From the NCBI GenBank assembly GCA_030601705.1, contig JAUWBM010000002.1, positions 1 to 63,832 of the forward strand: DNA of 63,832 nt. Reading direction: 5' to 3'. Below the pieces are notes generated by a model. That model was not told the DNA's origin. It did not search any database and was given only the letters and a program-made list of their open reading frames with translations. A program made the position numbers and the translations under genes. Numbering within the stretch: position 1 is the stretch's first letter; each line of letters opens with the position of its first letter. The stretch is from Thermoplasmatota archaeon (lineage in GTDB: Archaea > Thermoplasmatota > E2 > DHVEG-1). Below, one piece after another: positions 6,038-7,037 of the stretch.

Positions 6038-6108
6038 CTTTTCACAACTAGCATACAAATTAGTGCAGGGGGAGCGATTTGAACGCTCGAAGACCTACGT
6101 CACAGGGT

Positions 6109-6465
6109 TTCTTAGTGTTAAGGCATGGAACATGCCCAAATTTGGGCTATTCTCTGATTTTTATGCGGGGACTTTTTATTGTAACCGGTTACCAAAACGC
6201 TCCCATCATTTCTTAAACTTCTAAGATGCGTTCTCACGGTCGAAGCTGAAAGATCTAGAGAGTATGCTATATCACGAACAGTCATATTTCTCTTCTTCAT
6301 CATCTCTAATGTTTTCCTGGCTGGTATAACGTTATATTGATGGTTCCATCAGCTCCTATGGCGCCTTCGTCAATTATCGCTTGAACGATTATCGCCATTG
6401 CGGCATCCTTATTGTTTTTCGCCATTTTCAATATTCTATTCATTTAGTCCATGCCTCAAAGCACA
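6109..6465 (-). other. tRNA intron (bulge-helix-bulge type), 357 nt
   Basis: RNA sense: ...CAGGG CUUA GG|U GUG CUUU GAGGCAUGG ... CCAUGCCUU AA CAC UAAG AA|A CCCUG. There are two 3-nt bulges flanking the 4-bp helix CUUA/UAAG, an outer helix GUG/CAC, and a 9-bp closing helix. Confidence 0.8.
6118..6303 (-). CDS. intron-borne small winged-helix/HTH protein (hypothetical)
   Basis: 61 aa. TVRDIAYSLDLSASTVRTHLRSLRNDGSV fits an ArsR/MarR-like HTH. Lies entirely inside the tRNA-Leu intron on the tRNA strand. Preceded by a 39-aa ORF (6306-6425) in another frame. Confidence 0.35.
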   Translation of the reverse strand: MMKKRNMTVRDIAYSLDLSASTVRTHLRSLRNDGSVLVTGYNKKSPHKNQRIAQIWACSMP

Positions 6466-6569
6466 CCTAAGCCCTGCCCCTTTGACCGCTCGGGTACCCC
6501 TGCAGGTTTTTAGATCCTTAATATACATAGCACTCAAAAATCTTTTTAAAGAAGTTTTCTTAATCCGAT

Positions 6570-6806
6570 CTACTTTTTCATTCCTTTGATAAGAATACGT
6601 TCGCCATATTTTGTATAGCAATTAGAACAAAATTTACGTGCAATGAGTGAATGAATATGTTCTTCTACTCCTTCTTCCAAATAATAAATCTCATCTGGAG
6701 CTATCTTACTGTCGCAATTAGTACAAACAGTAGGAAATTTTGATTGTTTTTTAACTAAGCGGGTTTCAATTTCCATTTCTGTCATACGATCTCCCCATAT
6801 CTTCAT
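6570..6806 (-). CDS. small zinc-ribbon protein (hypothetical)
   Basis: 78 aa with two CxxC pairs (CTNC, CSNC). Confidence 0.5.
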   Translation of the reverse strand: MKIWGDRMTEMEIETRLVKKQSKFPTVCTNCDSKIAPDEIYYLEEGVEEHIHSLIARKFCSNCYTKYGERILIKGMKK

Positions 6807-6870
6807 TTATCATGGTCTTTATAATCTTTTCTTTCTTGAATCTTGACTCGATAACATTTATAAAGGAAAT

Positions 6871-6880
6871 CCTTATATTA
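6871..6880 (+). promoter_or_regulatory. TATA-like box upstream of initiator tRNA
   Basis: CCTTATATTA centred about 32 nt upstream of tRNA position 1 (6908), preceded by the purine-rich BRE-like AAAGGAAAT. Confidence 0.35.
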
Positions 6881-6907
6881 CAAAAAATCGTGGATATTTT
6901 AGTAAAT

Positions 6908-6982
6908 AGCGGGGTGGGGTAGTCAGGAAATCCCGACGGGCCCATAACCCGTAGATCAGTGGTTCAAATCCACTCCCCGCTA
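6908..6982 (+). tRNA. initiator tRNA-Met (CAU)
   Basis: AGCGGGG-TG-GGGTAGTCAGGAAATCCC-G-ACGGG-CCCATAA-CCCGT-AGATC-AGTGG-TTCAAAT-CCACT-CCCCGCT-A. A1:U72 pair and G29G30G31:C39C40C41 are archaeal initiator hallmarks. No encoded CCA. Confidence 0.9.
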
Positions 6983-7037
6983 CTCTTTTCTCATTTTAGC
7001 ACCAGATTTATAAACCAGAGTTTTTCTCCATAATCTT

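Follow-up and report, generated by a model that had tools for sequence, protein, structure and literature searches.

A long intron in a tRNA-Leu(UAG) gene of an uncultured Thermoplasmatota archaeon appears to be a recently broken copy of a protein-coding intron

The introns of archaeal tRNA genes are short, with a reported range of 11-129 nucleotides (nt) and medians of 12-25 nt; the review that gives these figures mentions no protein-coding capacity, lists the box C/D RNA of tRNA-Trp as the sole functional element inside such introns, and states that how they are gained or moved is unknown (PMC4090602). Among archaeal introns bounded by a bulge-helix-bulge (BHB) motif, those of crenarchaeal 16S and 23S rRNA genes carry one- or two-motif LAGLIDADG homing endonucleases, and short or partial derivatives of them also occur (PMC4496867). 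Open reading frames (ORFs) in archaeal tRNA introns go unmentioned in PMC4090602, in a second 2014 review and in the tRNAscan-SE 2.0 paper, though a newer description is possible. Here we describe a tRNA-Leu(UAG) gene at positions 6064-6503 on the minus strand of a 63,832-nt stretch of contig JAUWBM010000002.1 from an uncultured Thermoplasmatota archaeon (the whole stretch is called the window), whose 357-nt intron appears, from comparison with its relatives, to be a recently inactivated copy of a ~592-nt intron encoding a 186-amino-acid (aa) protein.

The closest described systems are the rRNA BHB introns of the I-DmoI, I-PorI, I-Tsp061I and I-ApeI types in Thermoproteales and Desulfurococcales. 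Like the intron described here, these are protein-spliced and BHB-bounded, with an ORF of LAGLIDADG fold filling most of the intron; they too have a patchy distribution, degenerate short derivatives and an inferred horizontal spread, and two of their enzymes, I-DmoI and I-Tsp061I, are among the structural matches of the N-terminal domain of the protein considered below. The present case differs in its host, a tRNA gene interrupted between positions 37 and 38, in its lineage, Thermoplasmatota, in its protein, which joins a predicted single LAGLIDADG domain to an ArsR-type winged helix and has no significant LAGLIDADG match in Pfam, NCBIfam or PHROGs, and in the broken state of the window's own copy. 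Ordinary archaeal tRNA introns at 37/38 share with it the position, the helix-bulge-helix-bulge-helix (hBHBh') geometry and the presumed splicing by EndA and RtcB, but the window intron measures 357 nt and its intact relatives, at 571-595 nt, encode a conserved protein. We would classify the finding as an endonuclease intron of the rRNA type, but placed in a tRNA gene of Thermoplasmatota and with an unclassified protein of predicted LAGLIDADG plus winged-helix architecture.

An initial annotation made from the window alone had proposed a class II tRNA-Leu(UAG) split at 37/38 by an exceptionally long BHB intron. The exon strings at 6503-6466 and 6108-6064 (minus strand) match that proposal letter for letter, with 357 nt between them (6465-6109), and define the following features:

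6466-6503, minus strand: 5' exon of tRNA-Leu(UAG), tRNA positions 1-37, with the anticodon UAG at 6469-6467; the same as the 5' half of intron-less orthologues
6064-6108, minus strand: 3' exon of tRNA-Leu(UAG), positions 38-73, with discriminator A; CCA is not encoded
6109-6465, minus strand: 357-nt BHB intron at 37/38, placed by ARAGORN with introns allowed and by alignment to a related contig, L087

When the exons are joined, ARAGORN folds the 83 nt into a tRNA-Leu(tag) whose variable arm is of class II, and the identical 83 nt of an intron-less relative (L006) score 55.3 bits against the Rfam tRNA model, whose gathering score is 29. With introns allowed, ARAGORN also finds the gene in place (6063-6503, one call, 357-nt intron), but reads the anticodon as UAA because its splice is placed one base too early; both the BHB geometry and the intron-less orthologues give UAG with G37. 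The match cannot be due to chance, as functional intron-less genes in related genomes have the same exon sequence. As had been predicted, scanners miss the gene, default ARAGORN and Rfam cmscan reporting only the neighbouring tRNA-Met, and the intron indeed lies at the canonical 37/38 site with a length far above the range of 11-129 nt (PMC4090602). On sequence grounds, then, 6064-6503 of the minus strand is the tRNA-Leu(UAG) gene of this uncultured Thermoplasmatota archaeon, interrupted by a canonical BHB intron at 37/38.

Two other kinds of interrupted tRNA gene can be set beside it. Group I introns in bacterial, cyanobacterial and plastid tRNA-Leu(UAA) and tRNA-fMet genes also sit in the anticodon loop and can carry an endonuclease ORF, but they are self-splicing ribozymes, whereas the junctions here form a BHB and no group I or group II model matched, no Rfam intron family being found in the region either at the gathering threshold or at E<=10. 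At permissive threshold Rfam lists RAGATH-12 (E 0.58), sR5 and HOTAIR_2 in the region, all chance matches; the C/D-box hint that sR5 gives within the intron was rejected, its score being 12 bits where the threshold is 40. Split and permuted tRNA genes (Nanoarchaeum, Caldivirga) are likewise broken at 37/38, with a BHB formed from the sequence flanking the halves, but the halves in the window are collinear, on one strand, 357 nt apart and covered by a single ARAGORN call; only one related contig, L096 (below), has no 5' exon.

The origin of the window intron is best seen in its alignment to L087, a metagenome contig of the same species whose flanks are 97-99% identical to the window and which has the same gene order (small Zn-ribbon-like ORF, tRNA-Leu, AAA kinase, PurS, PurL and FKBP). 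The window intron corresponds to the 592-nt intron of L087 with a 236-nt internal deletion and a 1-nt insertion, the other positions being identical at 353 of 356, and in a second contig of the same species, L082, the intron is likewise undeleted. The window keeps positions 1-154 and 391-592 of the long intron, and the termini that build the BHB are retained. The ends of the deletion fall in a 7-nt direct repeat, AGGAAAA. The remains of the ORF and the two lesions are as follows:

Between 6311 and 6310 (6310-6318), minus strand: junction of the 236-nt deletion, beside the retained AGGAAAA copy at 6318-6312; residues ~40-120 removed
6328-6329, minus strand: 1-nt (T) insertion relative to the intact L087 and L082, upstream of the deletion, shifting the frame
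6306-6443, minus strand: N-terminal ORF fragment beginning MNRILKMAKNNKDAAMAIIVQAIIDEGAIGADGTINIT, 45 codons and a stop; residues 1-39 at 95% identity (tblastn), then out of frame
6118-6303, minus strand: C-terminal ORF fragment, an ArsR-type winged helix-turn-helix of 61 aa, 100% identical to residues 126-186 of P0002, the homologue encoded on L087

Tblastn recovers only two blocks in the window, residues 1-39 (6443-6327) and 121-186 (6318-6121), and these lie in different frames. The N-terminal fragment retains the conserved helix-end motif IIDEGAIGADG, and the C-terminal fragment scores 37.6 bits against Pfam HTH_5 (cut-off 22, E 2e-9). The initial annotation had regarded the overlapping ORFs as spurious, overlooking this last one, the winged-helix C-terminus of a 186-aa protein; its picture of the intron as a non-coding outlier gives way to derivation by deletion from an ORF-bearing intron of 592 nt, and 357 nt is no extreme where introns of relatives reach 571-595 nt at the same site. 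With the frameshift and the 236-nt deletion, the window copy has no intact reading frame, and since the beta-sheet core is lost, its protein can certainly not act as a nuclease. That the 61-aa winged-helix ORF is still intact is put down to the recency of the deletion and has no bearing on function. Exact look-ups of both window ORF fragments and of the neighbouring kinase matched no record, and no homologue came up when the 67-aa winged-helix fragment of the window was used in a word-indexed search; an exhaustive HMMER search with the fragment gave mostly repeat and helix-turn-helix noise, plus three true family members (P0035, P0048 and P0116).

An unbroken ORF of 186 codons is present in the 591-nt intron of a related locus, L037. 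A protein search with this ORF returned 38 homologues of ~186 aa, 58-83% identical, and 27 metagenome loci of the intron ORF were found; searches for relatives of the ORF in viral contigs found none. Where the homologues are named at all in public databases they are called ArsR regulators or hypothetical proteins (ArsR family regulator in JGI). The ratio of nonsynonymous to synonymous change among the intact ORFs (dN/dS 0.08-0.18), together with a third-position excess, indicates that the family is under purifying selection. The C-terminal third of the intact protein matches Pfam HTH_5 (40.5 bits, E 2.5e-10) and a PDB profile search with it gives winged helix-turn-helix proteins; in the structural model this domain (residues 118-183) consists of three helices followed by a two-strand wing. 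Its likeness to ArsR is limited to the ~45-residue helix-turn-helix core, and the NCBIfam ArsR models reach 28.6 against a cut-off of 55.

For the N-terminal ~112 residues, AlphaFold2 predicts an alpha-beta-beta-alpha-beta-beta-alpha topology (predicted local distance difference test score 88.9, predicted template modelling score 0.80). Foldseek against the PDB returns almost only LAGLIDADG proteins for this domain (template modelling (TM) score 0.5-0.59, probability 0.9-1.0, E 3.5e-3 to 0.2), among them PI-PfuI, the Tli and Pho VMA intein endonucleases, I-DmoI, the archaeal intron enzyme I-Tsp061I, PI-SceI and WhiA, and against the viral library BFVD it returns LAGLIDADG/DOD and intein-bearing proteins with TM-scores up to 0.66. 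An invariant stretch, QAIIDEGAIGADG, closes helix 1; D25 and E26, invariant in all members, lie at the end of model helix 12-26. From the model we conclude with fair confidence that the N-terminal domain has a single LAGLIDADG fold, and we infer that the intact protein may have nuclease activity.

The setting of the ORF is nearly constant. At every locus with both exons (L037, L087-L091, 18 complete metagenome loci, the distant L094 with anticodon UAG, and L092/L093 with GAG and 39% identity), the ORF lies inside a tRNA-Leu intron of 571-595 nt at 37/38. The ORF starts 22 nt past the 5' splice site, and its stop falls within the closing helix, with 12 nt left to the 3' splice site. Several exon lineages of tRNA-Leu(UAG) serve as host, and in L092/L093 it is tRNA-Leu(GAG); since the sequence alone leaves the splice point ambiguous, ARAGORN with introns allowed labels some of these genes wrongly, as Leu(taa), Phe(gaa) or Ser(tga). 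The sole sequence common to all host sites is the anticodon loop, CU(U/G)AGG before the splice point and (A/C) after it, between the inverted-repeat arms of the stem; in the intron-less allele of L006/L044 the site reads GGGGCAGGGCTTAGG on one side and ACCCTGTGACG on the other. A single-domain LAGLIDADG enzyme working as a homodimer could plausibly target such a site.

The exception is L096 (JGI Ga0209427_10090809, 1-2753), which has the intact 186-aa ORF, the 3' end of the intron, the 3' exon of tRNA-Leu(UAG) and the syntenic kinase, while the 5' exon was found nowhere on its 2.7 kb. It would be either a split tRNA-Leu produced by rearrangement within the intron or a chimeric assembly. The ORF is preceded by an AT-rich spacer that has GGAG 8 nt ahead of the ATG; also upstream, on the opposite strand, is an ORF for an unrelated membrane protein. 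Seven further metagenome contigs (L114-L120) end within the intron ORF, which suggests that several intron alleles coexist in the same samples. As to gene calls, many extend the intron ORF into the 5' exon of the tRNA, with N-termini such as CRGTRAWSKGQGLGV, AGVPEWSKGQGLGV and MQGYPSLVQGAGLRS (extended calls are seen in the alignment for P0001, P0003, P0015, P0020, P0023, P0025, P0026, P0030, P0031 and P0033), and some run on into the 3' exon (...ALALRDPVA).

Residence in an intron is accompanied by two further signatures of mobility, namely patchy alleles (0, 62, 357 and 592 nt in close relatives) and an intron younger than its flanks. Between L087 and L103, which come from different samples, the intron ORFs have a proportion of synonymous differences (pS) of 0.10 and 95% protein identity, against flanks of only 67-75% DNA identity; for the adjacent kinase the corresponding values are 0.69 and 58%. 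Near-identity begins ~29 nt upstream of the tRNA, extends through the gene and ends with the 3' exon. The ~22 differences scattered over this tract show that the two contigs are not one molecule assembled twice. In the pair L088 and L108, where the pattern recurs, pS is 0.23 in the intron ORF and 0.61 in the kinase. L082 (JAJISJ010000128.1, 1-680) is a mosaic: its flank is 98-99% identical to that of the window species and its first ~125 intron nt 98-100%, but the interior of its intron matches that of L037 at 98-99%, although the flanks of L037 are only ~68% identical. This may be the product either of intron recombination between lineages or of a chimeric assembly, the contig being 680 nt long. 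The metagenome-assembled genome that holds L082 (bin38) also contains L036, a tRNA-Leu(UAG) that has no intron and whose exons differ slightly, and the bin may be mixed. A patch of tRNA plus intron was thus probably transferred between diverged hosts, as expected of homing with co-conversion of the exons; we put it no higher than probable because all of the sequences are metagenome assemblies.

An exact-pattern scan (D-loop to position 37) over one genome per species yielded 86 loci, mostly from uncultured Thermoplasmatota. At 39 of these the exons are within three mismatches of the window's (<=3), and here 19 have an intron at the same site, with lengths of 19-46, 62, 105, 131, 156 or 591 nt; the remaining 20 of the 39 species provide the intron-less alleles that the initial annotation had proposed to look for at the orthologous locus. 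Overall, related Thermoplasmatota have 0, 19-62, 105, 131, 156 or 571-595 nt at this site. Three of the shorter classes still carry recognizable parts of the long intron:

L007/L008, 62 nt: first ~32 nt of the long intron (start codon mutated to ACG) and last ~15 nt kept
L017, L026 and L121, 130-131 nt: first 32 nt and last ~75 nt of the long intron kept
L058, 156 nt: last ~140 nt of the long intron kept, still translating as the winged-helix end

The flanks of L017 (131 nt) and L037 (591 nt) are ~97% identical, so a second, independent deletion has occurred within one lineage. The 19-46-nt introns can be aligned to the long intron only at their BHB-constrained termini, and their descent from it is possible. 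Ranked by the identity of their flanks to the window (blastn), the nearest relatives are:

L087 and L095, flanks 97-100% identical: full-length intron
L114 and L120, flanks 91-94% identical: ORF-bearing, cut by contig ends
L008 and L007, flanks 89-95% identical: 62-nt remnants
L044, flanks 77-84% identical: intron-less

L005 and L022, from DPANN-type and unclassified archaeal metagenome-assembled genomes, have a tRNA-Leu(UAG) with no intron at 37/38 and with apparent insertions in the variable-arm/T-arm region, which are probably non-canonical introns; downstream of the matched 5' half, L022 reads GGTTCGAAT-TAAGGGAGAATGTCCTCCCTTTAAGAGA-ATCC.

Taken as a whole, the account of a spliced tRNA-Leu(UAG) whose BHB intron decayed from an endonuclease-type mobile intron seems to us likely, and we hold it with good confidence, but several observations weigh against it. 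The LAGLIDADG assignment rests on a predicted structure, with Foldseek E values of only 2e-3 to 1e-1. In sequence, the N-terminal domain has no significant match in Pfam, NCBIfam, PHROGs or the PDB: the Pfam LAGLIDADG_1 model reaches E 0.06 at best, in 1 of 21 members, a PDB profile search with the domain gives no LAGLIDADG match, and hhalign against I-CreI places EGAIGADGTINI on AGFVDGDGSIIA, and GADGTI on GDGSI of I-CreI, at a non-significant probability of 1.7%. The catalytic acid is ambiguous, being D25/E26 according to the model or D32 according to the motif alignment, and P0048 lacks D32. Over the full length, the top Foldseek match is WhiA, a non-catalytic regulator with a LAGLIDADG fold and a helix-turn-helix. 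Furthermore, the comparison sequences are all metagenome assemblies, in which apparent transfer could come from chimeric joins at the shared exons; several contigs are broken within the intron, and no independent record was found to have the deleted allele of the window.

The most serious alternative is that the intron protein is not a nuclease but a WhiA- or ArsR-like DNA/RNA-binding regulator or chaperone, the patchy distribution having arisen by ordinary recombination and deletion. The match to WhiA speaks for it, as do the lack of a significant LAGLIDADG sequence match, the ArsR-type helix-turn-helix matches, which are the only significant ones in sequence, and the public annotation as ArsR regulators. 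WhiA itself, a bacterial transcription factor (PDB 3hyi), resembles the intron protein in having a LAGLIDADG fold followed by a C-terminal helix-turn-helix, but it is free-standing, outside any intron, and has two degenerate LAGLIDADG domains, and its TM-score over the full length is only 0.27; the intron protein has a single such domain, with an invariant acidic pair, and is encoded in an intron. The gene, moreover, is always linked to the 37/38 intron of tRNA-Leu, in several host lineages (L096 being the contig with no 5' exon), the acidic pair is invariant at the end of the LAGLIDADG-type helix, and near-identity confined to the intron between diverged hosts, together with a decay series, is the signature expected of a homing element. 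We therefore consider a purely regulatory protein unlikely, though it is the strongest of the competing explanations.

Much less probable is that the 357-nt form is an assembly artefact in which a true 592-nt intron collapsed in a mixed population. Contigs that end in the intron indicate strain heterogeneity of the kind this would take, and the deleted allele has no independent record, but the junction lies at a repeat of 7 nt, far below the k-mer sizes of assemblers, the window has a separate +1 insertion, and independent deletion derivatives of 131 and 156 nt occur in other genomes. Slighter still is the case for a plain, exceptionally long non-coding BHB intron with no role but to be spliced out: the tRNA and BHB are real and the full-length ORF is no longer in the window copy, but apart from one deletion and one insertion the intron is almost identical to an ORF-bearing one (353/356), the ORF family shows purifying selection, and the leftover 61-aa ORF is a bona fide winged helix.

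Decay of the ORF has left the splicing motif in place. All of the BHB elements lie where the initial annotation had put them (anticodon stem CAGGG/CCCUG, central helix CUUA/UAAG, bulges GGU and AAA, GUG/CAC, and the 9-bp helix GAGGCAUGG/CCAUGCCUU), with the following layout:

6462-6476, minus strand: 5' strand of the hBHBh', with CAGGG 6476-6472, CUUA 6471-6468, bulge GGU 6467-6465 spliced after GG (6466/6465), and h' GUG 6464-6462
6103-6117, minus strand: 3' strand of the hBHBh', with h' CAC 6117-6115, UAAG 6114-6111, bulge AAA 6110-6108 spliced after AA (6109/6108), and CCCUG 6107-6103
6449-6457, minus strand: 5' arm of the closing 9-bp helix, GAGGCAUGG, including GAGG 10 nt upstream of the ORF start codon
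6120-6128, minus strand: 3' arm of the closing 9-bp helix, CCAUGCCUU, overlapping the final codons and stop of the intron ORF

In the window the anticodon stem pairs at 5 of 5 positions, two 3-nt bulges enclose a 4-bp helix, and h' has 3 bp before the 9-bp helix, one substitution having shortened h' from the 5 bp of L087. In the minimum-free-energy fold the cloverleaf frame and the AAA bulge are retained, but the 5' bulge is shifted by one register; for the mini-substrate, the optimum is -31.5 kcal/mol against -27.0 kcal/mol for the canonical BHB. Covariation was assessed over 34 distinct related introns, including metagenome loci and two other exon lineages. In the canonical register pairing holds in 96.2% of cells, and compensatory double changes occur at 11 of 14 pairs; 0 of 500 shuffles reach these values, while slid registers pair only 25-52%. 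The anticodon stem and the 4-bp central helix are fully paired and the bulges always 3 nt in 34 of 34 introns; for h', 99% of cells are paired, with compensatory changes at all 3 pairs. An example is CUUA/UAAG, which becomes CUGA/UCAG in a tRNA-Leu(GAG). The canonical BHB, conserved and covarying, is therefore under selection, which argues that these tRNA-Leu genes are spliced and used. A dead tRNA gene, disrupted by an inserted element and neither spliced nor used, is accordingly about the least credible of the explanations, for although the thermodynamic optimum differs from the exact canonical BHB and h' is weakened from 5 to 3 bp in the window, the exons are undecayed and identical to functional intron-less orthologues, the BHB is kept with compensatory changes in all variants, and the tRNA-Leu(UAG) locus is syntenic in dozens of genomes.

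The GAGG, a possible ribosome-binding site, and the end and stop of the ORF form opposite arms of the closing helix (6449-6460 and 6118-6128), so that in the unspliced pre-tRNA such a site would be sequestered. Outside the gene, a tRNA-Met(CAU) lies at 6908-6983 on the plus strand, ~400 nt upstream of tRNA-Leu and divergently oriented, and between the two is an ORF of 71-78 aa with cysteine pairs (Zn-ribbon-like; 6570-6806, minus strand). This layout of tRNA-Met, Zn-ribbon-like ORF and tRNA-Leu is kept in nearly all related loci (window 6570-6983, L037, L087-L121).

The reading we prefer, a decayed mobile intron in a working tRNA gene, can be put as a sequence of steps. The archaeal splicing endonuclease (EndA) would cut the pre-tRNA at both 3-nt bulges, RtcB would join the exons into a functional tRNA with G37, and the intron would be released, probably as a circle. 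In intact copies the ORF would be expressed from the pre-tRNA or from the excised, possibly circular intron, and its product would probably be a homodimeric homing endonuclease that cuts intron-less tRNA-Leu(NAG) genes at the partly palindromic DNA of the anticodon arm, repair then copying the intron in. After fixation the ORF would become dispensable and decay by internal deletions while selection for splicing preserved the BHB ends, yielding a series of 592, 357, 156, 131 and 62 nt, and perhaps also the introns of ~20-45 nt and the intron-less alleles. The window intron would now be merely a long spliced spacer on its way to a mini-intron.

A single syntenic locus would in this way display the full life cycle of a tRNA intron, from intact copies under purifying selection, through signs of interspecies transfer and independent internal deletions, to mini-introns and empty sites. 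We know of no earlier description of archaeal tRNA introns that bear an ORF. Default scanners miss these genes, and the tRNA-Leu(UAG) isoacceptor may consequently look absent from annotations. A LAGLIDADG domain joined to a winged helix and recognizing a tRNA gene would also be a new scaffold for endonuclease specificity. Whether introns at the canonical tRNA position, at least in this clade of Thermoplasmatota, can start as homing-endonuclease mobile introns, spread between species and then decay to short BHB introns is a broader proposition, which we offer as a real possibility that falls a little short of an even chance. If true, it would supply a DNA-level mechanism for the gain of tRNA introns, and would also account for both the failure of tRNA scanners to see such genes and the misannotation of the intron protein as ArsR. 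The life cycle seen at this locus makes the question of intron origin experimentally tractable, with one protein and one target of ~25 bp.

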